The notes below the pieces were generated by a model. That model saw nothing but the letters and a program-made list of their open reading frames with translations, was not told the DNA's origin and did no database searches. A DNA stretch of 64,000 nucleotides from the NCBI GenBank assembly GCA_014384675.1, contig JACNFK010000020.1, positions 3,954 to 67,953 on the forward strand. The letters are read 5' to 3'. Both the position numbers and the translations under genes were made by a program. Source of the DNA: Candidatus Thiopontia autotrophica. Its GTDB lineage: Bacteria > Pseudomonadota > Gammaproteobacteria > GCF-002020875. Positions 24,609-51,728 of the stretch are shown piece after piece. Positions within the stretch are counted from its first letter, which is position 1; every line of letters starts with the position of its first letter.

Positions 24609-24644
24609 TTGCACTCTACCGGTGAATATGTCATTCTGAAAGGG

Positions 24645-31654: not shown

Positions 31655-32281
31655 ATGAGCGATACCCAAACAAAAGTCCATGTCACCATTAACGGCAAAC
31701 AGATCCATGTCTCCTCGACACTATCTGTAATCCAGGCACTGTGGAAAGCAGGATATCCCCGCGTCCAGGGGGTTGGCTGTCTCGAGGGTGTATGTGGATC
31801 CTGCCGGGTATTGGTGCGTCGCGCAGAAACTGACGAGATAAGCATGGAGATGGGGTGCCAGACCCTGGTTGAGGATGGTATGGAGGTAATGTTTCTGGTC
31901 TTTCCGTCACCATCCCAGCATAGCTACAGTCTGGAACAGATACAAAATTCATGGGAGGTCCAGACCGAGTTCCACAAGATTTTTCCTGAAGCACAACAGT
32001 GCCGCAATTGTCACGGTTGTACAACATCATGCCCCAAGGATATTGATGTTGAGAAGGGGGTTGAGCTTGCGGTAAAGGGGCGTTTTAAAGAGGCCGGAGA
32101 CCTGTTTATTGAGTGTGTTATGTGTGATCTCTGCATGACCGGATGTCCTGAACAGATTGCTCCAAACCATGTTGGCCTGTTTGCTCGACGTGTGACCGCA
32201 TACTTTCACTCTCGCCCCTCCAACCTGATTAATCGCCTTGAAAAGATCCGTACTGGCGCCCTACAGGTGATCAAGGAGTAA
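31655..32281 (+). CDS. succinate dehydrogenase / fumarate reductase iron-sulfur subunit-like protein (short, 208 aa)
   Basis: [2Fe-2S] motif CLEGVCGSC (cf. SdhB CREGVCGSD) plus two Cys clusters, CRNCHGCTTSCP and CVMCDLCMTGCP, in the positions of the SdhB [4Fe-4S]/[3Fe-4S] sites. Confidence 0.8.
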   Translation: MSDTQTKVHVTINGKQIHVSSTLSVIQALWKAGYPRVQGVGCLEGVCGSCRVLVRRAETDEISMEMGCQTLVEDGMEVMFLVFPSPSQHSYSLEQIQNSWEVQTEFHKIFPEAQQCRNCHGCTTSCPKDIDVEKGVELAVKGRFKEAGDLFIECVMCDLCMTGCPEQIAPNHVGLFARRVTAYFHSRPSNLINRLEKIRTGALQVIKE

Positions 32282-32283
32282 TT

Positions 32284-33921
32284 ATGGATAAGGTCAATAA
32301 CGAGGCAATATCCTATCAGAAGGCAGTCGCCAACTATCGCATCAAACAGGAGCGGCCTCTGCCAATACCTGAAATTGATAGTGAAAAACTGTTAAACAGT
32401 TTTCACCCAGACTATATCGAAGAGTGCCTAACTACACTAAAGGTTGGAGCCAACAAGGGAGACCCTTGCCACAAACAGCTTGCCGATACACTGCAGTCAG
32501 ACTCAAGAATCAGTGAAGCTGATTTGGCAGGAGCCGCGACTGTAGAGACAGATGTACTGGTTATTGGTGGTGGTGGTGCAGGATGTGCTGCCGCACTGAT
32601 TGCACAACAACAGGGGGCCAGAGTAATCCTGGCTACAAAACTGCGTCTTGGGGATAGCAACACAGTAATGGCAGAGGGCGGTATTCAAGCCTCCATCAAC
32701 AAGGATGATTCGCCCCAATTCCACTATAACGACACCATGAGTGCCGGCCATCAGAAATCTGATCCTGACCTTGTATCTCAACTGGTGCTGGATGGACCTG
32801 ATGTTATTCGCTGGCTTATCCAGCAGGGCATGCAGTTTGATCTGGATGAGTTTGGTGACCTGCTTACCAGGCGTGCTGGTGGTACCTCAGCGGAACGCAT
32901 ATGTTTCTATCGTGACTACACTGGCCTGGAGATGATGCGAGTACTACGTGAATCTGTCCATAACAGCAACATTGATGTGTGGGACTACAGTCCAACAGTG
33001 GAGCTACTAGGGGATGATCAGGGTGGCTGCTCTGGAGCTGTTATCTCTTCACTGAAAAATCGAAAATATATCCAGATAAGCGCAAAGGCAGTTATTGTCG
33101 CAACTGGCGGCATTGGAAGAATGCACCTTAATGGTTTTCCAACATCAAACCATTTCGGTGCAACTGGTGATGGCCTGGTACTCTCCTATCGCATGGGAGC
33201 GCAACTGCGTGATCTTGACTCTTTTCAGTACCATCCAACTGGTCTTGCATACCCCTTCCACCTTGCAGGCAGCCTTATAACTGAAGGAGTTCGCTCCTGT
33301 GGAACCTATCTGTTAAACGGGAATGGAGAACGCTTTGTTGATGAGCTCTCCGCTCGAGATATTGTTGCTGCCGCCGTTATTCGTGAATGTCGTGAAGGTC
33401 GAGGCATAATTACAGAGGATGGCCATCAGGGAATCTGGCTGGACACCCCAGGGCTGGAGGCCAGGCAACCCGGGGTTCTGCAGAAGAGGTTTCCCAAGCT
33501 AATGCACCTGGGAGAGAAAGCCGAAATCAACCCGGCTGAAACACCACTACTTATATACCCTACCCTCCACTATCAGAACGGTGGTGTAGTAATTAATGAA
33601 GATTGTGAAACCTCAGTGCCAGGACTCTTCTCTACTGGTGAGGTAACCGGTGGAATTCACGGAAGAAATCGTCTTATGGGAAATGCTCTTCTTGAGATTA
33701 TCAGCTTTGGGCGTAAGGCAGGAGCTGCCGCCGCCAAAAAAAGAAAAGACAAACGCAGCAGTCAACTATCTATTGAGCACCTAAATACACTCCGTAGAGA
33801 GCTGACCAACGCAGAACTCTCTATGGATCTACAGGGACCAATACTCTTTCCTGAATATGCAAAATTTGATCTGGACTCAGATTATGTTGGTCTGCACCGT
33901 AACCGAAGGCAGAGCTCATGA
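32284..33921 (+). CDS. FAD-dependent fumarate reductase / L-aspartate oxidase-family flavoprotein with ~85-aa N-terminal extension
   Basis: GxGxxG VLVIGGGGAGCAAALIA, then MAEGGIQA (no His for covalent FAD, as in NadB and soluble FRDs), HPTGLAYPFHLAGSLITEGVRSCGTYLLNGNGERFVDELSARDIVAAAV (close to E. coli NadB FHPTALYHP...LTEALRGEGAYL...RDIVARAI), and GNALLEIISFGRKAG. Stop overlaps the next start (ATGA). Confidence 0.8.
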   Translation: MDKVNNEAISYQKAVANYRIKQERPLPIPEIDSEKLLNSFHPDYIEECLTTLKVGANKGDPCHKQLADTLQSDSRISEADLAGAATVETDVLVIGGGGAGCAAALIAQQQGARVILATKLRLGDSNTVMAEGGIQASINKDDSPQFHYNDTMSAGHQKSDPDLVSQLVLDGPDVIRWLIQQGMQFDLDEFGDLLTRRAGGTSAERICFYRDYTGLEMMRVLRESVHNSNIDVWDYSPTVELLGDDQGGCSGAVISSLKNRKYIQISAKAVIVATGGIGRMHLNGFPTSNHFGATGDGLVLSYRMGAQLRDLDSFQYHPTGLAYPFHLAGSLITEGVRSCGTYLLNGNGERFVDELSARDIVAAAVIRECREGRGIITEDGHQGIWLDTPGLEARQPGVLQKRFPKLMHLGEKAEINPAETPLLIYPTLHYQNGGVVINEDCETSVPGLFSTGEVTGGIHGRNRLMGNALLEIISFGRKAGAAAAKKRKDKRSSQLSIEHLNTLRRELTNAELSMDLQGPILFPEYAKFDLDSDYVGLHRNRRQSS

Positions 33922-35177
33922 GTGACTTATCAAAACTGAATCAGGTACTACTTCATCCTGATCGTCGCTTCGGTGCTGATCTCGATACCTGGCTGGTTGA
34001 TATTGGTGGTGACGGTCTGGAGAAAGCAATACTGAATCCGGAACATATTCTACCAACCATTCGTGAAGCAAAGTTACTGGGGCTCGGTGGTAGCGGGTTC
34101 CCAACCCATATCAAGTGGGAATTTGTAGCGAATGAACCGAGTGACCAGGACAAATATCTCATCTGTAACGGAAATGAAGATGAGCCGGGAACATTCAAAG
34201 ACCGAATCCTGCTTCAGGAGACCCCTCATCAGGTTATTGAAGGGGCAATTATTACCGCACTGGCCACTGGCACAAACCAGATTGTCTTCTATATAAATCC
34301 TGAACAGGAAGGTTCGCTTGAGGCGATGAAAGAGGCCACAAACCAGTGGAGTGAAACCGACTATGTAAACCAGGTCTCCAACATCCTTGGACGCCCTCTT
34401 GAGTTTTATATTGTTGCCAGCTCTGGTCACTATATTGGTGGTGAAGAGACTGCGGCAATTGAGTCTATTGAGGGCAAATTTCCATTTCCACGTGGCAAGC
34501 CACCATATCCTGCTAAAGCAGGACTATTTGGACTCCCTACACTGATTAATAATGTAGAGACCATGGCCAACGTCTCTCATATTATTCGCAATGGTGCAGA
34601 GTGGTTTATAAACCAGGGAGAGGGAGACTCGCACGGCACAAAGATCTTCTCCCTGAGTGGTGATGTACTACGTCCCGGAGCTTATGAACTCCCGATGGGT
34701 ACTCCCCTGTCTGACCTGATCCATATCCATGGTGGAGGCATGTTGCTGGACAGAAAACTCAAGGCAGTCTTTACCGGTGGCCCCTCCAACACAATCTTGA
34801 CACCAAAGGATCTGGATGTCCCGCTGGACTTTGACTCGGTGCAGGAGAGACGATCCAGCCTGGGTACAGGGGCAATGATCGTAATCTCAGAGGGGACAGG
34901 AGTTGTACGCCGGGTGACAGAATATGTCTCGTTCTTTGCAAACTCATCCTGTGGGCAGTGTCCTTCATGCAAAACAGGAACATTTTATGCGTCTCAACTG
35001 CTCTCGCGAATTGACAGCGGAAATGGAACCCGTGCCGATCTTGACACATTGATTAATCTAACCCGCATCCTCCCGGGAAGTGGCCGTTGCCATCTTTTGG
35101 ACGGGGCAATAAAACTGCTTGATAGCTCTCTCTACCATTTTATGGATGAATATGAGCAACCACTGAGACACAGCTAA
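33918..35177 (+). CDS. NuoF / 51-kDa-like NADH-binding FMN iron-sulfur flavoprotein
   Basis: GLGGSGFPTHIKWEF (NuoF GRGGAGFPTGLKW), YLICNGNEDEPGTFKDRILLQETPHQVIEGAIITALATG (NuoF [28 protein letters not shown]), GGEETAAIESIEGK, and [4Fe-4S] SCGQCPSCKTG (NuoF SCGQCTPCREG). Confidence 0.8.
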   Translation: MSDLSKLNQVLLHPDRRFGADLDTWLVDIGGDGLEKAILNPEHILPTIREAKLLGLGGSGFPTHIKWEFVANEPSDQDKYLICNGNEDEPGTFKDRILLQETPHQVIEGAIITALATGTNQIVFYINPEQEGSLEAMKEATNQWSETDYVNQVSNILGRPLEFYIVASSGHYIGGEETAAIESIEGKFPFPRGKPPYPAKAGLFGLPTLINNVETMANVSHIIRNGAEWFINQGEGDSHGTKIFSLSGDVLRPGAYELPMGTPLSDLIHIHGGGMLLDRKLKAVFTGGPSNTILTPKDLDVPLDFDSVQERRSSLGTGAMIVISEGTGVVRRVTEYVSFFANSSCGQCPSCKTGTFYASQLLSRIDSGNGTRADLDTLINLTRILPGSGRCHLLDGAIKLLDSSLYHFMDEYEQPLRHS

Positions 35178-35371
35178 ACAAACCTAAACTTCGGCGAAAT
35201 CTAGGTAAAAAACCGGTAATCGTCGGTTATTTTCTCCAAAAACCACAATACACACATAGCTTATATAGTCATTTCAGCTTGATTCCACACCCTGTTTCAT
35301 GAGATGATTAGCGGCTATTGCCACCGACCTGTCAAGGTCAACAAAAGAAAAAGCTCTGCGAGGAAATCGTT

Positions 35372-37259
35372 CGTGCAACCAACTAGCATCAAAGAAAATA
35401 TTGTAGAAATTGTAAGCGACTCTGGAGAAGGAGCCCAAAAATGTGGGCAGACCTTCGGAAATATAAGTGCCAAAATGAACAATGGAGTCTGGACGGTAGA
35501 AATTATCCCTGCCGAGATCCAGCCACCTGCGCGCACCCCATCTGGAGCCAGTGGTATTCGTATCCGCTTTGGCTCTAAATATATGACCAATGTCGGCAAT
35601 GAGGGTGACCTGGTTGTCGCCTTCAATGAACAGGTTCTCTACTCCAGAATAGCCAATGGTGCCTACAAAAAAGGCACTATTGTTCTGTTGGATAATCGCT
35701 GGGAAAGTGATGCTTCCACAGAAATTCAGGAGATGTATAGAAAGGCCGTTGTCGAATTCCGTGAGCATGGGCTGGTTGTCCATGAGCTACCGATCCACGA
35801 GGCCTGTCTGGAGGTAGTCAAAGACCCCCGCAAAGGGAAAAACATGTTTGTCCTCGGCATGCTCTGCCGAATCTATAACCGCGACAAAGAGATGAGCCGA
35901 AACGAGATTGCCATCACCTTTGCCGGCAAGAAAAACGCGATCATCACCAGCAATCAAAACCTGTTTGATGCTGGTTACGCCTTTGCAGAGAAGCATGTTG
36001 GCGACTATTTCTTTGATATTCCTCCAGCAGAAGAGATGGGCAGTCAGAAAATGGTTGTCACTAACGGGAATACTGCAATTGGTTTGGGGGTGATGGCCTC
36101 TGGAATGGAGTTAGTCTCCATGTACCCCATTACTCCGGCAACCTCTGCCTCACACTATCTGGCAGATGTTTACCCGGCAGCTGGAGGCTTCGTTCATCAG
36201 GCAGAGGATGAGATTGCGGCAATAGCATTTGCAATTGGTGCCTCCTACGCTGGCAAAACAGCCTGCACAATTACCTCAGGTCCAGGTATGGCACTGAAGA
36301 CCGAGAACATTGCTCTGGCAGTAATGGCAGAGATCCCGCTGGTGATTGTAGATGTTCAGCGTGGCGGGCCATCTACTGGTCTCCCCACCAAAATTGAGCA
36401 GGGAGACCTCCTCTCATCCCTTTATGGCATGCCTGGAGATGCGCCCAAGATTATACTTGCTGCCGCCACCATTGCTGAGTGTTTTAGTATGGTAGTGCTG
36501 GCCCGCAAACTGGCTGAAACCTTCCGCACCCCAGTAATCGTCTTGACAGATGCAAATCTGGCAACCGGGGTACAGCCTTGGGTACGTCCGGAATTGAGCC
36601 GTGACATGCTGGCACCACCACTGGATCAATCAGAATGGAACCCGGATGTTCCAGCCTATGACTGGGATGAAAAAACCGGGCTCTCACAACGCCCAATCCC
36701 GGGAATGCCCAGGGGTGAATATGTACTGACAGGCCTCTCTCACACCAAACAGAGCAAGGTATCCTATGAGTCGACCGAGAACCAGCACAGCACAAGCATG
36801 CGTAGTCGCAAACTGGCCACCTTGCAAAGCACCCTGACTCCTCCAGAAATACACGGTGACGAGAGTGGAGACCTGTTAGTTGTTGGCTGGGGTTCTACCT
36901 ATGGCGCAATCAACGAGGCAATTGATAATCTTCGTGAAAAAGGGAGCAAGGTCTCCTCAATACACCTACGATTCCTCTCTCCATTGGAGCCTGGACTAAA
37001 AGAGATTTTCTCTAGATTCAAAAAGGTAATTACGGTAGAGGTCAACTACAGTGACGACCCCAAGGCACCGATGATTACCGATGAGAACCGTCGCTACGCA
37101 CAGCTGGCTAGCATACTACGTATTCAGACTCTGGTTGATGTGGACTGCTGGTCAGTGGTCTATGGACACCCCCTGCAACCGGAACTTATTGAGAACGCCA
37201 TTCAGGAACGGTTGGATCAGGTTACTGACAACCGATCCTCACAGGACAAAGGAGAATAA
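35372..37259 (+). CDS. korA: 2-oxoglutarate:ferredoxin oxidoreductase subunit alpha, two-subunit type
   Basis: GTG start with GAGG 8 nt upstream gives MQPTSIKENIVEIVSDSGEGAQKCGQTFGNISAKMNNGVWTVEIIPAEIQPPARTP. This matches the conserved KorA N-terminus of two-subunit OFORs (SGDSGDG..QLTG....A..GND..T.PDFPAEIRAP). The track start at 35304 adds an implausible leader. Followed 2 nt later by korB. Confidence 0.85.
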
Positions 37260-37261
37260 CG

Positions 37262-38224
37262 ATGTTTGGAATCAAGGCAGATTGGTCCCTCGATATTCAG
37301 GAGCGTTACTTCACCCTGGATGATTATGAAGGAAATGAGGCACGCTGGTGCTCCGGATGTGGTGACCATGCAGTACTGGCAACAGCTCATCGCATCCTGC
37401 GTGATGCTCAGCTACCACCGGAAAAATCAGTTTTTGTCTCCGGAATCGGCTGCTCAAGCCGGATGCCACACTATATGGCAACTTATGGACTCCATGGGCT
37501 CCATGGTCGCGCCCTCCCTCTGGCCTGCGGGGTAAAATCTCGACGCCCAGATCTTGATGTATGGGTAGCTACCGGAGATGGTGACTGTTTCTCTATTGGT
37601 ACAGCTCACTGGATTCATGCCGTGCGTTATAACATGGATATGACAGTGCTTGTCTTTGACAACCAGATCTATGGATTGACCAAAAAGCAGACCTCTCCAA
37701 CCACCCCAATCGAGTTCAAGACCAGCACTCATCCGCAGGGAGCATCTCTGGATATGCTCAACCCCAATACAGTTACTCTGGGAATCACCAACGCATCATT
37801 TGTTGCGCAGGTTGTGGACTGGAACCCTCCCCTGCTGCACGAGACTCTGAAGGCGGCACACAAACACAAGGGGACAAGTTTTGTCAGAATCATTCAGCGT
37901 TGCCCGGTCTTTGTAGACTCCATTACCAAGGAGCTTCAGGAGGATGCCTCCAGACTGCGTCTACTGACCCATGAAAACGGGATCCCCGTCGCCAAGGGAA
38001 TTGAAAAGCTCTTTCCTGAAACCATGGAACATGACCCTGCAGATATGGCTGAAGCTCTTCAAATTGCACGTGACGAGACCGAGAAGGGAATCATTCCTGT
38101 TGGTCTCCTCTATCAGAATAGTAACATCCCTTGCTACAGTGACCTCTCTAGCGTCGGCCACGATGCTACGGATGAAATAAAGATTGCTGCAACCAATGAC
38201 GCCCTGGATGCGTTTGCGATCTAA
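37262..38224 (+). CDS. korB: 2-oxoglutarate:ferredoxin oxidoreductase subunit beta, TPP-binding
   Basis: N-terminal Cys cluster WCSGCGDH ... GIGCSS for the [4Fe-4S]. Canonical TPP motif GDGDCFSIG...(x27)...VFDNQIYGLT. Confidence 0.88.
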   Translation: MFGIKADWSLDIQERYFTLDDYEGNEARWCSGCGDHAVLATAHRILRDAQLPPEKSVFVSGIGCSSRMPHYMATYGLHGLHGRALPLACGVKSRRPDLDVWVATGDGDCFSIGTAHWIHAVRYNMDMTVLVFDNQIYGLTKKQTSPTTPIEFKTSTHPQGASLDMLNPNTVTLGITNASFVAQVVDWNPPLLHETLKAAHKHKGTSFVRIIQRCPVFVDSITKELQEDASRLRLLTHENGIPVAKGIEKLFPETMEHDPADMAEALQIARDETEKGIIPVGLLYQNSNIPCYSDLSSVGHDATDEIKIAATNDALDAFAI

Positions 38225-38242: not shown

Positions 38243-40762
38243 ATGAGTAGTGCACATTCACTTCCCATACTGAACTCTACGCAATCAGAGCCAGAATCAG
38301 AGACCAAAACTCTAAGGACTCTTCACCACTTTCACCTTGGAGACCCTAGTGTAGAACGTGAGACCAGACAGATTGGCAGTGATTATCTTCCTGCACTGCT
38401 TGGTCCATTTCGTGATGTCTCAAAGATTAGTTATGACTATCCATTGGTTCTCTTCTCCAGAGAGTCCCGCCAGAGCAGTCAATATGCACTACCTCTCTCC
38501 ACATTTCTCCAGGAGTCTGTAGCAGAATTTGCCCCCGGCGAGAATGGTGCACGAATACTTAAAGATAACCTGGGTTGGCTGGAACATGCAATTCGAGGTG
38601 AGCTGGAAGGGCATGATGGGCCACTCCAGCTCTTCCCGGCAGTAAACCGTTCTGTTGAAGCACTGTTACAGCACCTCTCTCTATCTGGTGACAACCAGAA
38701 GGCGGTCGAGAATGATCTTGAGCAACTTAAGGGTTTCTTCAGTGAAGCGGATCAACTCCTCCCATACGATCGCTATACCGCAATTCATCTAATGATTCAT
38801 CTGGTCCATGGACGCTCTGAAGAGCGCTGGGACCAGTTTGAGATTGAGCTCCAGGATTTACGCCGCCAACTCAATCAGATTCTTGATATCGAGCAGCGCA
38901 AATCAGGTGAAGCAATGGGCGCCTCTGCACTACAGAAAAGTGTTGGCAGCAATGCCAATCGCTTTAATTCCGAGGCCCTCTCTTCAGTGCTTCCCCAGAA
39001 TAGTGGCACAGTCACCATGTCTGAGGCGCGCAAGGATAGAATCACTCATGCAGCAGAGATCATAAACCAGTTCCAGCGAGATCCTGTTCAGGTACGCTTT
39101 ATCCATACTGGCGACTTCTCTGGTCCATGGGCTGATCATCCCAACCACTTTGAGACTACAGTTGATGCAGACCCTTGTCACAAGGCGACATCCATATTCG
39201 ACAGTGAGGCAAATGAGCTTGCCGAGCTCTTTACTGCATGCAGAATTGCCCGCCTGGAGATTGACAACAGTTATGATGCAACTGTTCATGACCCCTGGTT
39301 TGCCAACTTTAACTGGGAGGCTTTTTCAAAGGAGGAACTCTTACTTGTTCCAGCAACGGTTGCTTTAGAGCCGGCAAATCGATTGGCCCGTGAGGGGCTT
39401 AGCTCCTTCTCTCAGCTACTGGGCTCCGGACGACCCATTCAGATCCTGACTCGAGTCAAGGGTCATAGTAATCCTGCTGCTAGTGAAGAAGAGTCCCCAT
39501 TCCATGATTTCCGTCTGGAACTAGGGTATATAGCAACAGCACATCGTCAATGCTACGTGGCCCAAACCTCTGCTGCTCGCTATCAACATTTGATGAGCAG
39601 CTTCCTGGAGGCAACCGAGATTCCCCACACTGGAGTCCACCTGATTAATACCGGGGTTCAGATTACCAGTAATCTGCAGGAAGATGATCCTCACATGATC
39701 GATCCATCAATCCAGAAGAGCAGAAAACAGTTCCTGATGGATCCATGGATGGTGGCCAGTGCTGCCCTGGAGGGGCGTGTTCACCCCTTCTTCCGGATGA
39801 ATCCAGAACTGGGGGATACCTTTGCCGAGCGGATGAATTTTAGTGTCAATCCGCAGCCTGAAAAGGATTGGGCCATCCATCCGTTCAGCTATCAAAATGA
39901 GAATGGTGAGGTGACTCATACGGAATTCGCCTTCACCTTTGCCGACTATGCACTGCTGGTACCTAAACTCAGAAACCATTTTCGCCTTATTCCTGGTAAT
40001 TTTGAGTCCGAGGCTCTAACTCCAATTGCTGAGTATCTGCAACAATCCGAGGAAAACAGCTTCTCTCTAGTACCATTCGTCTGGACTATCAACAAGGATA
40101 ACCTGCTCCACAGAGCTGTTGTATCCCGAGAACTGGTGCTTGCGTGCAAGGATAGGCTCAACTACTGGCATACCCTGCAGGAGCTCTCTGGAGTACGTAA
40201 TCCACACGCAGACCAGGCTGTCAATGAGGCTAACCTGTTGATGGAGGCAAAACAGAACAGCATTATCAGTGAGCTTCAGCAGAGTCACGCCGAGGAGATT
40301 AGTCAACTACAGGCCGATGCAACAGCAACGGTGATGAGTAAACTGGCTAAGGTGCTGATGGGAATGAACCTCGAACAGAATATCGTTGCCGGCGCTGGAT
40401 CTACTGCAACTACTGCAACTACTACAGAGACAGAAGAGCAAGACTCCGAACCAACCGAGGAGGCTGTCGAAGAGATGGCTTCAGAGGAGGAGCCTGTTAT
40501 CGAGATCTCTGAAGACCCATGGATCGAATCCATTCTCTGCACAACATGCAATGATTGCACCAATATGAATCCACAAATGTTTGTCTACAACGATGATAAA
40601 CAGGCATACATAGCTGACCCCAATGCTGGAACCTATGCGGAACTGGTTGAAGCGGCAGAAATATGTCCATCCCGCTGTATCCACCCTGGAATGCCACTCA
40701 ATAGCAGTGAACCTGATCTGGATGAGCTGATCGAGAGAGCAGCCCCATTCAACCAGGGATAG
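38243..40762 (+). CDS. 839-aa protein of unknown function with a C-terminal single-[4Fe-4S] ferredoxin domain
   Basis: AAGAGGAA RBS. I recognise no motifs in the first ~750 aa (no Rossmann or P-loop, and no citrate synthase, aconitase or IDH signatures). The last ~80 aa, CTTCNDCTNMNPQMFVYNDDKQAYIADPNAGTYAELVEAAEICPSRCIHPG, fit the Pyrococcus-type single-cluster ferredoxin pattern CxxCxxC...(x~30)...CP. A Thr/Glu-rich acidic linker precedes it. Confidence 0.7.
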   Translation: MSSAHSLPILNSTQSEPESETKTLRTLHHFHLGDPSVERETRQIGSDYLPALLGPFRDVSKISYDYPLVLFSRESRQSSQYALPLSTFLQESVAEFAPGENGARILKDNLGWLEHAIRGELEGHDGPLQLFPAVNRSVEALLQHLSLSGDNQKAVENDLEQLKGFFSEADQLLPYDRYTAIHLMIHLVHGRSEERWDQFEIELQDLRRQLNQILDIEQRKSGEAMGASALQKSVGSNANRFNSEALSSVLPQNSGTVTMSEARKDRITHAAEIINQFQRDPVQVRFIHTGDFSGPWADHPNHFETTVDADPCHKATSIFDSEANELAELFTACRIARLEIDNSYDATVHDPWFANFNWEAFSKEELLLVPATVALEPANRLAREGLSSFSQLLGSGRPIQILTRVKGHSNPAASEEESPFHDFRLELGYIATAHRQCYVAQTSAARYQHLMSSFLEATEIPHTGVHLINTGVQITSNLQEDDPHMIDPSIQKSRKQFLMDPWMVASAALEGRVHPFFRMNPELGDTFAERMNFSVNPQPEKDWAIHPFSYQNENGEVTHTEFAFTFADYALLVPKLRNHFRLIPGNFESEALTPIAEYLQQSEENSFSLVPFVWTINKDNLLHRAVVSRELVLACKDRLNYWHTLQELSGVRNPHADQAVNEANLLMEAKQNSIISELQQSHAEEISQLQADATATVMSKLAKVLMGMNLEQNIVAGAGSTATTATTTETEEQDSEPTEEAVEEMASEEEPVIEISEDPWIESILCTTCNDCTNMNPQMFVYNDDKQAYIADPNAGTYAELVEAAEICPSRCIHPGMPLNSSEPDLDELIERAAPFNQG

Positions 40763-40770
40763 GAGCAGCC

Positions 40771-41634
40771 TTGAACAGTCTGCTAGCATCTCCAGCTATA
40801 ATGATGGGAATAGGACTCTTTTTCGGGGTAATTCTTGCTGTTGCCTATCGTCTGCTAAAGGTAGACGAAGACCCCAGAATTGATGAGACAGAAGAGATGC
40901 TACCTGGCACCAACTGTGGTGCATGTGGTGTTCCTGGATGCCGTGCTTTTGCTGAAGAACTCATCAAAGGCAGTGTGGAACCAAGCCAATGTACGGTTGC
41001 CCCCAAGGATGAGATCGAGGAAATTGCCGAATTCCTGGGAGTTGATGCTGGCTCACAGATAAAACGGGTTGCCCGTCTTCATTGTGCTGGTGGCAAAGAG
41101 GAGGCCTGGCAGATTGCAGAGTACCAGGGATTTGATAGCTGCCGCGCTGCTGCTGTAGTCTCTGGAGGTGGCAAAGGGTGTTCATGGGGATGTCTGGGAC
41201 TGGCAGACTGCGAGATCGCATGTGATTTTGATGCCATTCACATGAATGCCAATGGTCTCCCGGTTGTGGATCTGGATAAATGTACAGCCTGTGAGGATTG
41301 TGTAGTTGCATGTCCAAAGGATCTTTTCAAGATTCACCCGATTAATGAACACCTCCTGGTTCAATGCAGTGCCCCACTGGAGGGGGATGCGATTCTCTCA
41401 CTATGTGGTACCGCCTGTGATGGCTGTGGACGTTGTGCAACAGATGCCAATCCTGGCTTGATAGAGATGGTGGATGGCCTGCCTGTTGTAGATTACAGTA
41501 GCATGGTGGAAGAGACACCAGAGGCCACCTATCGCTGCCCCACTGAAGCCATTATATGGATAGATGGTGGACAGTTTGACCGCAAAAACAGAAACCTGAC
41601 CGAGGGTCAAAAACGTTATGCCCAGCTTCGCTGA
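40771..41634 (+). CDS. rnfB: Rnf electron-transport complex subunit B
   Basis: N-terminal TM helix, RnfB-specific LPGTNCGACGVPGCRAFAEELI (E. coli RsxB [21 protein letters not shown]), then two ferredoxin-type CxxCxxCxxxCP domains. TTG start with AGGAG 6 nt upstream; an ATG at 40801 is possible. Confidence 0.85.
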   Translation: MNSLLASPAIMMGIGLFFGVILAVAYRLLKVDEDPRIDETEEMLPGTNCGACGVPGCRAFAEELIKGSVEPSQCTVAPKDEIEEIAEFLGVDAGSQIKRVARLHCAGGKEEAWQIAEYQGFDSCRAAAVVSGGGKGCSWGCLGLADCEIACDFDAIHMNANGLPVVDLDKCTACEDCVVACPKDLFKIHPINEHLLVQCSAPLEGDAILSLCGTACDGCGRCATDANPGLIEMVDGLPVVDYSSMVEETPEATYRCPTEAIIWIDGGQFDRKNRNLTEGQKRYAQLR

Positions 41635-45420: not shown

Positions 45421-46596
45421 ATGAACCTTCACGAATATCAATCCAAAGAGCTTTTTGAACAGGTTGGGATCCCCGTACCTGCTGGAGTAACCATCGAACG
45501 TCTTGGTGAGGTAGCGCAGGCTGCCAACGATATTGGTGGCGAGGCCTGGGTTGCCAAGGCGCAAGTCCATGCTGGTGGGCGCGGCAAGGCTGGAGGCGTA
45601 AAAATAGCAAAGAGCATTGATGAACTTTCTACCTTCAGTGATGAGATGCTGGGTAGCACCCTAACCACCCCTCAGACCCATGGTCGTGGCCTGCCTATCC
45701 AGAAGGTATTAATTGAACAGACACTGGATATCAGTAGAGAGTTATACCTTGGCGCACTGGTTGATCGCGATCGCGAACAGATTGTCTATATGGTATCTGC
45801 GGCTGGTGGAATGGATATCGAACAGGTTGCTGCCGAAACTCCCGAGAAGATACTTACAGTACATGCCCATAGTGCTGCTGGTCTGCAGCCATACCAATGC
45901 CGCCAACTGGCATTTGGGCTGGAGCTGGAGGGCAAACAGATTGGGATGTTGACCAAAATTGTTAGCGGTCTGCACCGTCTATTTACTCACAACGACTTTA
46001 GTCTGGTAGAGATTAACCCTCTTATAGTAACTGGTGATGGAGATCTTCTGGCGCTTGATGCCAAGATCAACCTGGATGATAACGCTCTCTATCGCCACCC
46101 GAAACTACAGGAACTACATGATCCGTCACAGGAAGATAGGACTGAACTCGAAGCAAGCAAACACGACCTGAACTATATAACTCTGGACGGCAATATTGGC
46201 TGCATGGTCAATGGTGCCGGTCTCGCTATGGCTACAATGGATCTGATCAAGCTCCATGGCGGAGACCCTGCAAACTTTCTTGATGTCGGTGGCGGTACAA
46301 CTGCAGAACGGGTAGCCGCTGCATTCAAGCTGATCCTCAGTGACGCCAAGGTAGAGGCCATTCTGGTAAATATCTTCGGTGGCATCGTGCGCTGTGATCT
46401 GATTGCCGAGGGAATAATCTCGGCTGTGAAGGAGGTTGGTATAGAGATCCCGGTAATTGTTCGTCTGGAGGGAACCAACGCTCCGCAAGGGATGGATCTC
46501 CTGAAAAACAGTGGACTCAACATTGATGTTGAAGAGACCCTTACAGGGGCTGCCAAGAAGGCAGTCTCTTCAACCAATAGCCAGGAGGGAGAGTAG
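45421..46596 (+). CDS. sucC: succinate--CoA ligase (ADP-forming) subunit beta
   Basis: [20 protein letters not shown]...[19 protein letters not shown] is near-collinear with E. coli SucC ([20 protein letters not shown]...[19 protein letters not shown]). Confidence 0.93.
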
Positions 46597-46598
46597 AG

Positions 46599-47474
46599 AT
46601 GAGCATTTTAATTAACAACGATACTCGTGTCATCGTCCAGGGCTTCACAGGCAAACAGGGCACATTCCACGCAGAGCAGTCAATTGCCTACGGAACAAAT
46701 ATTGTTGGAGGAGTAACCCCGGGGAAAGGTGGCCAGAGCCATCTTGACCGCCCTGTATTCAACACTGTAAAAGATGCTGTAGACGCTACCGGTGCTGATG
46801 CCAGCATGATCTATGTTCCTGCCGCCTTTGCGGCGGACGCAATCTTTGAGGCTGCTGCCGGTGGTATCAAGACGATCGTATGCATTACCGAGGGCATTCC
46901 TGTTCAGGACATGATCAAGGTAAAGGCATTCCTGAAAGACTTTCCAGACACCCGCCTTATCGGACCCAACTGTCCAGGCATCATCACCCCCGGAGCCTGC
47001 AAGATTGGAATCATGCCTGGCAATATTCACCAGGAGGGGGCAATTGGCATAGTCTCCCGTTCTGGCACCCTCACCTATGAAGCGGTCTTCCAGACCACCA
47101 ATGAGGGTCTTGGACAGAGTACCTGTATCGGTATTGGAGGAGATCCAATCCATGGCATGAATTTTATCGACTGTCTGGAGCTGTTCCAGCAGGATGAACA
47201 GACCAGGGGAATTGTACTGGTTGGTGAGATTGGTGGCAGCAAAGAGGAGGAGGCCGCAGAGTATATTCGCCAGAATGTAACAAAGCCGGTAGTAGCATAT
47301 ATTGCCGGAGTGACCGCACCTCCAGGACGCAGAATGGGTCATGCAGGTGCAATCATCTCTGGTGGCAAGGGAACAGCGGAAGACAAGATAAGCGCCCTTG
47401 AGGCAGCCGGGGTCACAGTCTCCCGCTCTCCTGCCGAGATCGGAAAACATATGGCTGCATTACTGAACAGTTAA
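46599..47474 (+). CDS. sucD: succinate--CoA ligase subunit alpha
   Basis: [24 protein letters not shown], phospho-His loop [14 protein letters not shown], and CoA-binding fold. Confidence 0.93.
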
Positions 47475-47487
47475 CCATTAATAGTTT

Positions 47488-48837
47488 ATGGGTCTCCTTT
47501 CACTTTTCAGACAGAGCTTTGCACACGGTGTACACCCTGCCCACAACAAGGGGCAGACTGCAGACCTTGCAATTCAGCGGGTACCTTTTGGTCACCGTTA
47601 TGTAATGCCGCTGGGGCAACATATAGGTGCGCCAGCCATAGCTGTTGTAAAAAAAGGTCAGAGCGTGAAACGTGGAGAGATGATTGCCAAACCGGGAGGC
47701 TTCATATCTACCGCTCTACACAGCCCAGTCACCGGCACAGTAAGTGAAATAAGCCCTCAACGCACACTGGATGGATCATTTAAACCAGCCATTGTCATCG
47801 AGGCTGATCCATTTTCCACCCAGAGGGTAGAGACCACCCCTCCCCCATCCTGGGAGACCATCTCTCTGGATGATTTTATTGAACTTGTACAGCAGGCAGG
47901 AGTAGTTGGAATGGGTGGTGCAGCATTCCCCAGCCATGTTAAATACTCGATTCCAGACGGCATCGTGATTGATGATCTGCTGATCAATGGTGCAGAGTGT
48001 GAGCCGTTCCTTACCAACGATCATCGCTTAATGGTTGAGCAGCCAGAAAAAGTTATTAACGGAACCGAAATCCTGCGCCAAAAACTTGGGGCCAAGAGAG
48101 CCAATATTGGCGTAGAGAAAAATAAGCCAGAGGCGATTGTAAATCTCCAAAAAGCTCTTGATAAAAACCCGGAACTGCCAATAACCATAACCCCTCTGGA
48201 GGTGAAGTATCCCCAGGGTGCAGAGAAGATGTTGATTCAATCTGTCTACCACAAAGAGGTTCCTGCCGGTCAACTACCGAGAGATATCGGGGTTGCTGTC
48301 AACAACAGCGGCACCGTTGTAGCGATTGCTGACCTCTTTGCAACCGGATCCCCACTTATTGAACGGGTGGTCACAGTCTCTGGCCCTGGCATTGATCAAC
48401 CAGCAAATCTTCTGGTTCCACTTGGTACTCCAGTCAGGGATGTATTGAAATTCTGTGGTGGGCTCAATGACAAAACTCGAGAGGTAATAATGGGTGGTCC
48501 CATGATGGGATTTCCTATAGCCAGTCTGGATGTTCCCATTCTAAAGGGAAGCTCAGCCATTCTTGCATTTACCGAGCAAGAGACAGCCAGACCCCATGAG
48601 TACCCATGCATTAGATGTGGGCGCTGCCTGGAGGCATGCCCATACTTTCTCAATCCATCACGGCTGGCACTGTTAAGTCGCAACAGACGTTATGAAGAGA
48701 CTATTGATTACCATGTAATGGATTGTGTTGAGTGCGGTGCATGCAGCTTTGCATGCCCATCCAATATCCCGATTGTGCAGTTGATTAGAACAGCCAAAGA
48801 CAATATGCGCCAGCACCCTGTCGAGGAGGCAGCATGA
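47488..48837 (+). CDS. rnfC: Rnf complex subunit C
   Basis: N-terminal GVHPAHNKGQT...PLGQHIGAPA, Rossmann-like GMGGAAFP, and two C-terminal [4Fe-4S] motifs (CIRCGRCLEACP, CVECGACSFACP). Confidence 0.9.
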   Translation: MGLLSLFRQSFAHGVHPAHNKGQTADLAIQRVPFGHRYVMPLGQHIGAPAIAVVKKGQSVKRGEMIAKPGGFISTALHSPVTGTVSEISPQRTLDGSFKPAIVIEADPFSTQRVETTPPPSWETISLDDFIELVQQAGVVGMGGAAFPSHVKYSIPDGIVIDDLLINGAECEPFLTNDHRLMVEQPEKVINGTEILRQKLGAKRANIGVEKNKPEAIVNLQKALDKNPELPITITPLEVKYPQGAEKMLIQSVYHKEVPAGQLPRDIGVAVNNSGTVVAIADLFATGSPLIERVVTVSGPGIDQPANLLVPLGTPVRDVLKFCGGLNDKTREVIMGGPMMGFPIASLDVPILKGSSAILAFTEQETARPHEYPCIRCGRCLEACPYFLNPSRLALLSRNRRYEETIDYHVMDCVECGACSFACPSNIPIVQLIRTAKDNMRQHPVEEAA

Positions 48838-49850
48838 ACAGGGATGACCCGAATCTTCTGCTGCAGCCATCACCTCTGGTAAAACAGGGGCTGACTGTAC
48901 CGACTGCAATGCGTGACGTGTTGTTGGCACTTATGCCTGCACTATTTGCAGGGATCTGGTTCTTTGGCCTGAGTGCACTGCTGGTGGTTACTGCGACCAC
49001 TCTTGGTGCCTTGATGACAGAGTGGGTTTTTACCTCCAGAGAGAGCCGCTCCATTACGCTTGGTGATGGCAGTGCACTACTTACTGGAATATTACTGGGT
49101 ATGACCCTACCACCTGCTCTTCCGCTGTGGATGGCGTGGCTGGGAGGAGTAGTTGCTATTGGGCTCGGCAAGATAATCTGGGGAGGTCTTGGTAATAATC
49201 TATTCAACCCTGCCATTGTGGGTCGTGCCTTTCTGCTTGGAACATTTCCAATAGCAATGACGACATGGCATATCGCTGCGGGGCCTGACAGTTTCTTCAG
49301 CCTACACCCAAGCACCCTTGCCATGCCATTCATGCAGTCTCCCCCCATGGATGGCATGAGTGCCGCAACCCCACTTGGCCTGATGAAGTTTGAGCAGATT
49401 GATACCCCAATATTCTCCCTGATGTTTGGCAACACCTCTGGCTCACTTGGAGAGACCAGTGGCCTGCTACTGATGGTTGGAGGACTATACCTGCTGTTAC
49501 GTCGTGCGCTGGAGTGGAGAATACCACTGGCAATCTTTCTCTCTGTAGGGGTCTTTACCCTACTGTTACAGGCAATCGATCCAGCCCGTTTCCCAGATAT
49601 CCATTTCACCCTCTTCTCTGGCGGAATGATGCTTGGTGCAATCTACATGGCAACCGACCCTGTCACCTCACCTGTCACTACAAAAGGGGCATGGATATTT
49701 GGTTGCGGAGTTGGATTCCTGGTAGTGCTAATTCGTAACTTTGGTGGGCTACCAGAGGGGATACTATATGCCATTCTCTTTATGAATGCCGCCACCCCAC
49801 TGATTAACCGTTATACCCAACCCAGAGTCTTTGGCCGGAGCAGGAAATGA
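48834..49850 (+). CDS. rnfD: Rnf complex subunit D
   Basis: Polytopic NqrB/RnfD-family membrane protein. Overlaps the rnfC stop by 4 nt. Has the conserved FMN-attachment region. Confidence 0.88.
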   Translation: MNRDDPNLLLQPSPLVKQGLTVPTAMRDVLLALMPALFAGIWFFGLSALLVVTATTLGALMTEWVFTSRESRSITLGDGSALLTGILLGMTLPPALPLWMAWLGGVVAIGLGKIIWGGLGNNLFNPAIVGRAFLLGTFPIAMTTWHIAAGPDSFFSLHPSTLAMPFMQSPPMDGMSAATPLGLMKFEQIDTPIFSLMFGNTSGSLGETSGLLLMVGGLYLLLRRALEWRIPLAIFLSVGVFTLLLQAIDPARFPDIHFTLFSGGMMLGAIYMATDPVTSPVTTKGAWIFGCGVGFLVVLIRNFGGLPEGILYAILFMNAATPLINRYTQPRVFGRSRK

Positions 49851-50482
49851 GTGACGAACCCACCTCCACCCGCCTGATCTCCACACTGGCAATAGCTGGG
49901 CTAATTTCAGGCGTGGCAATTGTTGCCATCTATGAGGCTACTCTGCAGACAATTACCGACAATAAAGCCAGAGAGTTGAGAGAGGCTGTATTCAAGGTGT
50001 TGCCAGGGGTAAGTGAGATGAAAAAGTTTCAGCTAGATGCAGACGGCCTGCGTTTCCGTACAGAAAAAGGTAAAGATGAAAACACCCTTTACGGTGGATA
50101 TAACCAGCATGGAGAGTTCGTCGGTTATGCCCTCCCCAGTGCCGGTCCGGGGTTTCAGGACACTATCGGGATACTGTATGGATATATTCCAGAGTCACGT
50201 AAAGTAGTAGGTATGGAGATTCTGGAGAGCCGTGAGACTCCAGGGCTTGGAGACAAAATATACAAGGACCTCTCATTTGTATCCAATTTTGATAATCTTG
50301 CTATTGATCCAGAAATAGTTACCGTGAAAAAAGGGATGAAGAACGCTCCCAATGAAGTTGATGCCATTACAGGTGCAACCATCTCAGCAAAAGCTGTGGT
50401 TCGTATTATCAACGAGGGTAATGAGCGCTGGTTAAACAGGCTTCCTACCCACGGCATTCCACTACATGAGGGAGCCAGATAG
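49847..50482 (+). CDS. rnfG: Rnf complex subunit G (FMN-binding)
   Basis: N-terminal anchor and the covalent-FMN site context DAITGATISAKAV. Confidence 0.88.
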   Translation: MSDEPTSTRLISTLAIAGLISGVAIVAIYEATLQTITDNKARELREAVFKVLPGVSEMKKFQLDADGLRFRTEKGKDENTLYGGYNQHGEFVGYALPSAGPGFQDTIGILYGYIPESRKVVGMEILESRETPGLGDKIYKDLSFVSNFDNLAIDPEIVTVKKGMKNAPNEVDAITGATISAKAVVRIINEGNERWLNRLPTHGIPLHEGAR

Positions 50483-50484
50483 TC

Positions 50485-51138
50485 ATGGCAAAAACACCTG
50501 AAAGCGCGTACCAGGAGATGCTCAAGGGGATCTGGAGAGACAACCCTGTCTTTGTCCAGGTACTCGGAATGTGCCCCATGCTGGCGGTCACCAACTCTGC
50601 TGTCAATGCATTGGCGATGGGGCTAGCCACATTCTTTGTGCTGGTAGGCTCCAGCCTGCTGGTCTCACTAATGCGCAAGTGGATTCCCAAACAGGTTCGT
50701 ATCTCCAGCTACATCATCATTATCGCCACCTTTGTAACCATCATCGACTATACCCTGCTGGCAATCTTTCCCAAGATCCACAAAGAGCTAGGAGCGTTCA
50801 TCCCGCTGATTACCGCAAACTGCCTGATCCTGGGGCGCCAGGAGGCCTTCGCCTCACGCAACAGTGTCCGCTTTGCGGTAATGGATGCGGTGGGTATGGC
50901 GGGAGGATTCCTCTTCGCCCTGCTGGCACTTGGTGGGGTGCGCGAGATTCTCGGTGAGGGGGCACTGTTTGGGGTCTCACTCTTCGGACCCAACTTTGAA
51001 CCATGGATAATCATGATCCTGCCACCTGGCGGCTTCCTTACCCTGGGGCTGATTCTGCTCTTCTTCAACTGGGTCACAGAGAAGCGCAGAGAGGCACAGA
51101 TGCGTATGCTGCAACCGGCTGAGGAGAGAGCGTCATGA
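50485..51138 (+). CDS. rnfE: Rnf complex subunit E
   Basis: NqrD/RnfE family: NPVFVQVLGMCPMLAVT ... LITANCLILGR. Confidence 0.88.
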   Translation: MAKTPESAYQEMLKGIWRDNPVFVQVLGMCPMLAVTNSAVNALAMGLATFFVLVGSSLLVSLMRKWIPKQVRISSYIIIIATFVTIIDYTLLAIFPKIHKELGAFIPLITANCLILGRQEAFASRNSVRFAVMDAVGMAGGFLFALLALGGVREILGEGALFGVSLFGPNFEPWIIMILPPGGFLTLGLILLFFNWVTEKRREAQMRMLQPAEERAS

Positions 51139-51728
51139 TGACAGATGCCGCCTTCCAGCACTTCCTCTGGATTTTCGTCAGTGCTCTGTTGGTAAACAAC
51201 TTTGTGCTGGCATACTTTCTTGGGCTCTGCCCATTCCTGGGTGTCTCCGGAAAGCTCGAAACCTCATTCAGGCTTGGGCTTGCCACCACCTTTGTACTGA
51301 TTATCACCGCCATCTGTGCCTGGATACTCAACACCTACGTACTTCCCCATGCACCATACCTGCGACTGATCAGCTTTATTGTGGTGATTGCCAGCGTAGT
51401 ACAATTTATCGAGATGCTGATCAAAAAGCTCAGCCCCTCTCTATTCCGCTCACTTGGAATCTTCCTGCCGCTGATCACCACCAACTGCGCCATCCTGGGG
51501 CTTGCCATATTTGCCACCAACCGTGAATATGGGTTTGCTGAAAGCATTATCTTCGCCCTTGGTGCCGGAGGCGGATTCACCCTGGCACTGCTGCTTATGG
51601 CCGGACTTCGTGAGGAGAGTGAACTATCCGATGTTCCAACCCTGATACGTGGCACTGCATTTAATCTGATTATTGCAGGCATCCTCTCCATGGCCTTTAT
51701 GGGCTTTGCCGGACTCTTCTCGTCATGA
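51135..51728 (+). CDS. rnfA: Rnf complex subunit A
   Basis: NqrE/RnfA family: FVLAYFLGLCPFLGVS ... LPLITTNCAILG. Confidence 0.88.
   Translation: MMTDAAFQHFLWIFVSALLVNNFVLAYFLGLCPFLGVSGKLETSFRLGLATTFVLIITAICAWILNTYVLPHAPYLRLISFIVVIASVVQFIEMLIKKLSPSLFRSLGIFLPLITTNCAILGLAIFATNREYGFAESIIFALGAGGGFTLALLLMAGLREESELSDVPTLIRGTAFNLIIAGILSMAFMGFAGLFSS

Follow-up and report, generated by a model that had tools for sequence, protein, structure and literature searches.

A PFOR-derived protein with a ferredoxin tail between korAB and rnfB in Candidatus Thiopontia autotrophica: a putative scaffold and electron shuttle

Gene X, an open reading frame (ORF) that starts with ATG and encodes 839 residues (positions 38243-40762, + strand), was analysed in a 64,000-nucleotide stretch of DNA from Candidatus Thiopontia autotrophica (assembly GCA_014384675.1, contig JACNFK010000020.1), hereafter called the window. 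The gene lies between korAB, which encodes a 2-oxoacid:ferredoxin oxidoreductase (OFOR), and rnfB, which encodes an Fe-S subunit of the Rnf complex. The body of the protein was found to be homologous to pyruvate:ferredoxin oxidoreductase (PFOR) and to have lost the canonical cofactor-ligand motifs, and an intact single-[4Fe-4S] ferredoxin domain was found behind an acidic tether at its C-terminus. X is read here as a cofactor-less PFOR scaffold with a tethered ferredoxin, which may dock to its neighbours and ferry electrons, with RnfB at one end and KorAB or the PFOR-like protein encoded behind rnfB at the other; this reading is favoured with modest confidence. The original prediction, which a model made from the letters of the window, had located the ORF exactly and had placed it correctly between korAB and rnfB, and it had described the product as a large uncharacterisable protein with a C-terminal ferredoxin.

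The body of X, its lost cofactor sites and its ferredoxin tail

The translated ORF was 100% identical to NCBI entry MBC8519293.1, which is labelled 'ferredoxin' in Ca. Thiopontia autotrophica. A total of 227 homologues were found; among the 120 of these matches that were listed, nearly all were full length, and they covered 96-100% of the query with the exception of a single partial entry.

The relationship of the body was revealed by profile-profile comparison (hhalign). The X family profile (alignment A1) matched the C-terminal part of the PFOR-like protein encoded behind rnfB with a probability of 99.2% (E 1.6e-19) and the Ca. Vondammii orthologue of that protein with a probability of 99.7%. 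Residues 44-714 of X were collinear with residues 517-1255 of the PFOR-like protein over 594 columns (probability 99.9%, E 3.9e-34). The PFOR-like protein matched Moorella thermoacetica PFOR (6cin) with an E value of 2e-24 as a single sequence and 6.8e-62 as a profile, and its residues 1016-1127 aligned to residues 1026-1136 of PFOR, which belong to domain VI. Hence, X is a PFOR homologue through a protein that is itself a PFOR homologue. Moreover, X shared 30% identity over 576 residues (E 3e-81) with 'Big', a motif-complete PFOR that adjoins an X gene in another locus. In the fold comparison of the X model, the highest value was obtained for PFOR (6cin_A, 15.2 over 288 residues), followed by PorB (9bt4_D, 14.4), OorB (8ys5_C, 12.6), the beta subunit of StOFOR (5b48_B, 10.6) and Magnetococcus KorB (6n2n_B, 10.3), and generic enzymes that bind thiamine diphosphate (ThDP) reached 7-9. 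Foldseek returned the same top families. Both the sequence relationship to PFOR/OFOR and the PP-domain fold of domain VI or the beta subunit were thus found in X, and the cofactor motifs of the OFOR beta subunits named above are absent from it. At the level of sequence and predicted fold, the N-terminal part has no novel fold and is a paralogue of the neighbouring PFOR-like protein, and X is a PFOR-derived variant rather than a new family.

The standard libraries gave no sign of this relationship. Nothing was found for residues 1-750 by Pfam, which was run on X and all 40 aligned homologues down to E = 1, by NCBIfam, or by the PDB sequence search with the single sequence and the profile; weak matches to adhesin P1 and DUF325 in this region were taken as chance. 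The earlier statement that the 750 N-terminal residues hold no known motif therefore stood for motifs and standard hidden Markov model (HMM) libraries and failed for remote homology. The view of X as a previously undescribed family fell with the PFOR relationship at 99.9% probability, and PFOR-type labels are already in use for its orthologues in Mitchell et al. 2024 and in UniProt ('putative pyruvate flavodoxin/ferredoxin oxidoreductase' or 'pyruvate decarboxylase'). The original prediction had stated that it would fall, and the function be reassigned, if the N-terminal region could be tied with confidence to an enzyme family already known; the profile-profile match to PFOR largely provides this. 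A recent duplication of korB as the source of X was ruled out, with no detectable profile-level similarity to the window's own KorB family (hhalign probability 0.1%). No Pfam or NCBIfam model of an Rnf subunit (RnfA, B, C, D, E, G) matched X, and its tie to rnf is gene order only.

The cofactor sites were compared in an alignment of X, the PFOR-like protein and 'Big', together with column statistics. Both domain-V CxxCxxCxxxCP motifs are present in 'Big' and in the PFOR-like protein, where the eight cysteines are invariant in 25 sequences; X has neither, and the second lies within a deletion of ~95 residues. The CxxCGE site, which reads GCGE in 'Big' and GSGE in the PFOR-like protein, falls inside the same deletion of X. 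The GCSS motif of 'Big' corresponds to GTAA in the PFOR-like protein and is absent from X. The ThDP loop (GGDG ... YSNTGGQ in 'Big') is deleted after G-N-D-T in the PFOR-like protein and is replaced in X by A-L-E-P-A ... K-G-H-S-N-P, followed by a gap. The PC motif, which contains the fourth cysteine of the proximal cluster, is present in 'Big', reads PSP in the PFOR-like protein and is absent from X. No internal CxxCxxCxxxCP motif was found among 150 X family representatives. The Pyr domain (domain I or alpha subunit) is absent from the 839-residue X and was indicated only in long forms of 1290-1565 residues, by weak POR_N or PFOR_II matches. Compared with the solved PFORs of M. thermoacetica (6CIN) and Desulfovibrio africanus (1B0P), X corresponds to domains V-VI and is devoid of the ThDP loop, the proximal-cluster ligands, the domain-V clusters and domains I-III. 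With the ThDP and Fe-S ligand motifs all lost, the homology is no ground for assigning X a catalytic function, and its body is read, as part of the favoured model, as a probable pseudoenzyme that descended from PFOR.

The solved PFORs do not have a tethered C-terminal single-cluster ferredoxin, unlike X. The sole Pfam match of X was Fer4_13 at residues 765-814 (E 8.5e-9; 36.4 bits against a cut-off of 24.5), no NCBIfam model matched the protein, and the PDB sequence search returned only ferredoxin I of D. africanus (1dax; E 3.6e-4 by single sequence and 2.4e-6 by profile). The CxxCxxC...CP ligand pattern is present, and C766, C769, C772, C808-P809 and C812 are invariant among the 40 homologues, all of which carry the Fer4_13 tail. 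The tail was also found in 140 of the 150 top-ranked 50%-cluster representatives. To judge from the profile score and the ligands, the C-terminus of X is a bona fide Fer4_13 ferredoxin, as had been claimed. The C-terminal 55 residues align across the whole of the small D. africanus protein (1DAX/1FXR), which is a free carrier, whereas the domain in X forms the end of a 760-residue protein. The acidic linker that had been noted before this domain was also borne out: the tether (residues 707-760) contains 16 acidic and no basic residues among 54. In the 40 homologues, it is 47-66 residues long, with 24% acidic, 2% basic and 54% small residues, so that its character is conserved and its sequence is not. 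Residues 707-754 are predicted to be disordered (predicted local distance difference test score, pLDDT, <50). The tether is preceded by a single long helix (residues 654-706, pLDDT ~77-83 in the secondary structure of the AlphaFold2 (AF2) model), which the alignments show to be common to X, the PFOR-like protein and 'Big'.

Relatives of X and the PFOR-like paralogue

An exhaustive HMM search returned 2596 cluster representatives at E <= 1e-3, 1982 at <= 1e-10 and 1166 at <= 1e-30, of which the weaker ones probably include paralogues. The 150 top-ranked representatives that were examined all had E < 1e-160. They comprised 130 short forms with the tail, 10 long forms (1120-1565 residues) with the tail and 10 forms without it, some of which are truncated. 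Weak POR_N and/or PFOR_II matches were seen at the N-terminus of five of the seven long forms scanned, and one long form was collinear with its own PFOR-like neighbour across domains I-II too. Long forms occur, for example, in Acidobacteriota and Ca. Riflebacteria. The 1565-residue form of Ca. Riflebacteria (P0166, L086:4398-9095) has two tandem ferredoxin domains, with CTSCSEC at 1399 and CTSCAEC at 1494.

A large PFOR gene comes next to tail-less X in all three loci examined (L085, L087, L088). In L085, the one complete case, 'Big' (L085:12351-17357, metagenomic, 1668 residues, complete) lies between the tail-less X and rnfB, and the tail sits on this adjacent, catalytic-looking protein. 'Big' keeps every canonical motif (GCGE, GCSS, GGDG...YSNTGGQ, PC and two CxxCxxCxxxCP) together with domains I-III, and it shares with X the clade-specific long helix, a low-complexity linker, which is Ala/Pro-rich, and a single-cluster ferredoxin tail of the CTTCNEC type. 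It is presumably a working enzyme. The PFOR genes of the other two loci are cut by the contig end: L088:6242-9925 shows canonical PFOR motifs as far as it extends, and L087:11317-11658 encodes ~114 N-terminal residues that closely match the N-terminus of 'Big'. As 'Big' combines all motifs with the same tail, it shows what X has lost. In a rough neighbour-joining tree, X forms one clade and the PFOR-like proteins form another, with 'Big' between them. The simplest reading is that a catalytic PFOR ancestor with a tethered ferredoxin was duplicated and that the copies then degenerated in different ways; 'Big' looks like the catalytic ancestor-type of both putative pseudoenzymes.

The PFOR-like protein is a true paralogue of X. 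It keeps domains I-II and the two [4Fe-4S] motifs and is devoid of the ferredoxin tail, and X is the opposite in these respects. The PFOR-like protein has figured in the literature as a possible PFOR; judging from its motifs, however, it is unlikely to work as a pyruvate synthase. Its orthologues from L001, L002, L083, L084 and L086 were compared. The G-N-D that stands in place of GGDG was variable, and in the protein of the window, Gly replaces the Glu of domain I that is presumed to be catalytic. The protein is 1258-1291 residues long in the lineage of the window and ~1500 residues in most Gammaproteobacteria; the segment of ~250 residues that is missing from the former is the weakly domain-III-like part.

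Gene neighbourhood, distribution and expression

The features of the window that bear on X are given in Table 1. The operon runs in the order Fe-S protein, TfrA-like flavoprotein, NuoF-like protein, korA, korB, X, rnfB, PFOR-like gene, sucC, sucD, rnfC, rnfD, rnfG, two Rnf-Nqr subunits and mdh. The gaps are 18 nucleotides between korB and X and 8 nucleotides between X and rnfB, and rnfB overlaps the PFOR-like gene by 17 nucleotides. The AGAGGA core of a Shine-Dalgarno-like site stands 12 nucleotides 5' of the X start codon, and no promoter or terminator signals above the shuffled expectation were found inside the operon between korB, X and rnfB. KorAB scored 499 bits against TIGR03710 (cut-off 482.75). 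By its motifs, it is the only catalytically intact OFOR of the operon, because the PFOR-like neighbour is also without the proximal ligands and the ThDP loop. RnfB, the Rnf subunit that interacts with ferredoxin, has a hydrophobic helix at its N-terminus.

Table 1. Positions of gene X, its parts and its neighbours in the window
Feature	Positions	Strand	Basis or remark
korA and korB, two-subunit 2-oxoacid:ferredoxin oxidoreductase	35304..38224 (korA 35304-37259, korB 37262-38224)	+	TIGR03710; PorB_KorB and TPP_enzyme_C matches
Shine-Dalgarno-like AGAGGAA, directly after the korB stop codon and before the X start codon	38225..38231	+	direct sequence reading
Gene X, PFOR-derived with C-terminal ferredoxin domain	38243..40762	+	whole ORF including stop codon
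Probable PFOR domain V remnant (first half and helical insertion), residues 44-173	38372..38761	+	alignment to PFOR-like 517-665; cluster cysteines all lost
Degenerate PFOR domain VI (ThDP PP-domain fold) and following beta-rich region, residues 174-653	38762..40201	+	without GDG...YSNTGGQ loop and four proximal-cluster cysteines
Single long alpha-helix, residues 654-706, after W-x-x-LQEL-(A/S)-G motif	40202..40360	+	AF2 model and alignments
Acidic Thr/Glu/Ala-rich tether, predicted disordered, residues 707-760	40361..40522	+	pLDDT, composition
Single-[4Fe-4S] ferredoxin domain (C766-x2-C769-x2-C772 ... C808-P) and conserved C-terminal helix, residues 761-839	40523..40759	+	Fer4_13, 1dax
rnfB, membrane-anchored Fe-S subunit of Rnf	40771..41634	+	NCBIfam RnfB models; Pfam FeS and Fer4
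PFOR-like paralogue, 1258 residues	41618..45394	+	both domain-V [4Fe-4S] motifs kept; without proximal-cluster cysteines and ThDP loop
rnfC, rnfD, rnfG and two Rnf-Nqr membrane subunits (named E then A by gene order alone)	47488..51728	+	Pfam RnfC_N/Complex1_51K, NQR2_RnfD_RnfE, FMN_bind, Rnf-Nqr twice

When 185,579 species genomes were examined by a pattern scan, relatives turned up in 387. Synteny was evaluated in 82 loci (80 from the pattern scan and two others), and each count below takes the loci with enough flank. Immediately upstream of X, korAB was found in 58 of 66 loci, and rnfB followed immediately downstream in 60 of 73. The PFOR-like gene lay downstream in 52 of 61 loci and rnfC in 45 of 58. 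The module korA-korB-X-rnfB-PFORlike-rnfCDGEA was present in about 85% of the 82 gammaproteobacterial loci. Co-occurrence of X with korAB and rnf in other genomes, which the original prediction had proposed as a check, is therefore tight and wide. The carriers are sulfur-oxidising Gammaproteobacteria, including Sedimenticola, Thiodiazotropha, Thiosymbion, the tubeworm symbionts, Chromatiaceae, Thiohalomonadaceae and Thiomargarita/Beggiatoa-type bacteria. The same order recurs in Acidobacteriota, in Riflebacteria and in one metagenomic locus; L085, which is incomplete, reads korA-korB-X-'Big'-rnfB-PFORlike up to its end.

Several further genes accompany the module or X. In every non-gammaproteobacterial module examined except that of Riflebacteria (L086), a hemerythrin gene stands directly before korA (L083:2537-3010, L084:6560-7015, L085:6582-7022, L087:5599-6051 and L088:486-1019), and ApbE, a flavin transferase, is encoded nearby in three of these modules. 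Such neighbours may be a sign of oxygen sensing or protection and of Rnf maturation. In L064 and L073, where X has neither korAB nor rnfB nearby, an ORF of ~855 residues without a Pfam match precedes X. In the window, three co-oriented genes upstream of korA (31655-35177) encode a 2Fe-2S/4Fe-4S protein (208 residues), a TfrA/L-aspartate-oxidase-like flavoprotein (545 residues) and a NuoF-like FMN/NADH protein (419 residues), which together resemble a soluble NADH-dependent fumarate reductase. Such a trio lies upstream of korA in roughly one-third of the 82 loci and is elsewhere or absent in the rest. The genes sucC and sucD (45421-47474) separate the PFOR-like gene from rnfC in the window, as they do in some other lineages (for example L003, L017, L046); in many loci (for example L001, L002, L024), rnfC follows the PFOR-like gene directly. 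Phosphoenolpyruvate (PEP) carboxylase is encoded upstream of the operon (24609-27458) and malate dehydrogenase at its end (51920-52855). Together with korAB, the ppc, mdh, fumarate-reductase-like and sucCD genes would complete a reductive route from PEP to 2-oxoglutarate, fumarase aside, which was not searched for. The co-location of ppc, mdh, the fumarate-reductase-like genes and sucCD fits a reductive route driven by Rnf running uphill.

Dimeric korAB has been reported in these symbionts away from the main reductive tricarboxylic acid cluster (Rubin-Blum et al. 2019). In Endoriftia, 'korAB(3)' and a 'PFOR-like' gene drop together in expression (Mitchell et al. 2024, PMC11636981); the supplementary table of that study lists log fold changes of -2.62 for KorA(3) (LOY14_RS16060), -2.57 for KorB(3) (RS16065) and -1.91 for a 'PFOR-like ferredoxin' (WP_006475426.1, RS16070). 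WP_006475426.1 falls into the same 90% cluster as P0061, a homologue of full length with 45% identity to X, and the Endoriftia gene occupies the same place after korB(3). Hence, an X orthologue is expressed in Endoriftia, is co-regulated with korAB and has already been loosely labelled PFOR-like. The gene was called a possible PFOR by Mitchell et al. without domain analysis. This label was the sole mention of X in the full-text literature searched, which contained no dedicated description, domain analysis or mechanism. What appears to be new is the arrangement of two putative PFOR pseudoenzymes that bracket rnfB in an rnf operon beside korAB; it was not described in the literature searched.

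Proposed role, alternatives and implications

In the favoured model, the body of X would dock to a partner, which may be the PFOR-like paralogue, KorAB or both. Docking to the PFOR-like protein could use the PFOR-type dimer contact or the shared terminal helix. The ferredoxin on its tether would then move back and forth between RnfB, at its Fe-S clusters, and KorAB, at its acceptor cluster; the pair of clusters that the PFOR-like protein has kept may be served as well. In this way, 2-oxoglutarate synthase could be supplied with low-potential electrons, raised by Rnf from NADH and the ion gradient, with no need for a pool of free ferredoxin. The path could also run backwards, so that an oxidative direction is also conceivable. 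The original prediction had offered a dedicated shuttle, a scaffold or a new catalytic component; the first two remain the best fit, and a catalytic component is the least likely of the three, as the ligand motifs are gone.

Several points weigh against this model. Gene order and paralogy are the basis on which a partner (KorAB, the PFOR-like protein or RnfB) is guessed, and the electron path is likewise putative. Electrons may flow in either direction through what is probably a built-in shuttle. X stands alone, with neither korAB nor rnfB within 10 kb, in seven loci (L063-L067, L073, L082), mostly of Thiomargarita/Beggiatoa-type or other Thiotrichaceae metagenome-assembled genomes. The X model is of medium confidence (pLDDT 73, predicted template modelling score 0.67). 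When residues 1-310 were tested alone against the PFOR-like profile, the support was moderate, and the homology of the first ~310 residues to the PFOR-like protein is for this reason rated as probable, as is the assignment of residues 44-173 to a domain V remnant. For this region, residues 47-167 matched residues 520-640 of the PFOR-like protein with a probability of 38-57% (E 1e-4 to 3e-4), collinear with the strong match; the MAFFT register agreed with the profile alignment, and the model is helical. The body of X has more than 100 residues that are invariant without being cofactor ligands, and these could signify an activity of their own and not a docking surface. Finally, an acidic residue at position 376 (E376) and N410 have the spacing of the ThDP Mg ligands in the gammaproteobacterial subfamily.

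A more far-reaching version of the model is tentative and is considered rather improbable as it stands. Here, X and the PFOR-like protein would both be pseudoenzyme subunits and would fasten KorAB to Rnf. In the resulting membrane supercomplex, NADH and the ion gradient would drive the reductive carboxylation of succinyl-CoA through a closed relay from RnfB via the domain-V clusters of the PFOR-like protein and the ferredoxin of X to KorB, and no free ferredoxin pool would be exposed to oxygen.

PFORs are obligate dimers. X may therefore be only the pseudo-protomer of its paralogue, in a heterodimer that could act, for example, as an Fe-S relay on Rnf, with KorAB merely co-transcribed and using free ferredoxin. 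The paralogy of the two proteins across residues 44-714 of X, the terminal long helix that they have in common, the similarity that reaches domains I-II in the long forms and the bracketing of rnfB by both genes in 52 of 61 loci are all in keeping with such a pair. The adjacency of korAB and X is, however, equally strong (58 of 66 against 52 of 61) and is kept where rnfB and the PFOR-like gene are absent downstream (L055, L056, L062, L075), and X is co-regulated with korAB in Endoriftia. This alternative is regarded as unlikely on its own; it overlaps with the scaffold-and-shuttle model, and the two are not mutually exclusive.

It is less likely again, and on the whole doubtful, that X is an enzyme in which a new activity has arisen on the old PP-domain scaffold, with the tail as its own redox partner. 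Many polar residues of the body are invariant (R266, R334, H349, E365, R435, Q441, R512, N536, D568, R638), and these, together with the spacing of E376 and N410, would suit an active site. The acidic residue at 376 and N410 are, however, conserved in only 56% and 55% of 151 family members and are missing in the long and tail-less forms; a residual ThDP/Mg site was rejected on these grounds, and the pair is read as residual rather than functional. Furthermore, the canonical ThDP and Fe-S ligand motifs are all gone, the short form has no Pyr domain, neither Pfam, NCBIfam nor the PDB sequence search linked X to a catalytic family, and some family members are without the ferredoxin tail altogether.

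A protective or regulatory role, in which X would cap an exposed cluster of the oxygen-sensitive KorAB or sense redox state through its ferredoxin without carrying electron flux, is given slightly less weight still. The two-subunit type of KorAB, which has no delta or ferredoxin domain, the hemerythrin gene before korA in non-gammaproteobacterial modules and the microaerobic, sulfur-oxidising habit of the hosts would agree with protection. Such a role leaves unexplained, however, the constant embedding of X in the rnf operon and the transfer of the ferredoxin tail between paralogues, and no sensor-type domain was detected by Pfam in X or its homologues. The possibility raised earlier that the ORF joins a large unknown gene and a small ferredoxin gene through an assembly or frameshift artefact has practically no standing: nothing was found in its favour, and the fusion is genuine because all 40 aligned homologues, as well as 140 of 150 cluster representatives from independent assemblies, share the architecture, with relatives present in 387 species genomes.

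The loss of the ligand motifs has consequences for the annotation of these organisms. In metabolic reconstructions of free-living sulfur oxidisers and of the symbionts of tubeworms, lucinids and nematodes, X and its neighbour of 1258-1500 residues are counted as possible pyruvate synthases. These assignments are probably wrong, because neither protein has the ThDP or proximal-cluster ligands. The series from a motif-complete tailed PFOR through long cofactor-less forms to the short form would provide a clear natural example of an enzyme that becomes a scaffold and keeps one electron-carrier domain. If the supercomplex does exist, X and the PFOR-like protein would constitute a new class of Rnf accessory subunits and would explain the ferredoxin-dependent steps of CO2 fixation in microaerobic sulfur oxidisers. 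Moreover, a ten-gene module with two PFOR-derived putative pseudoenzymes is conserved across Gammaproteobacteria, Acidobacteria and Riflebacteria. This conservation suggests that Rnf is hard-wired to 2-oxoglutarate:ferredoxin oxidoreductase, and it bears on how low-potential electrons may be delivered to this enzyme in oxygen-exposed organisms.

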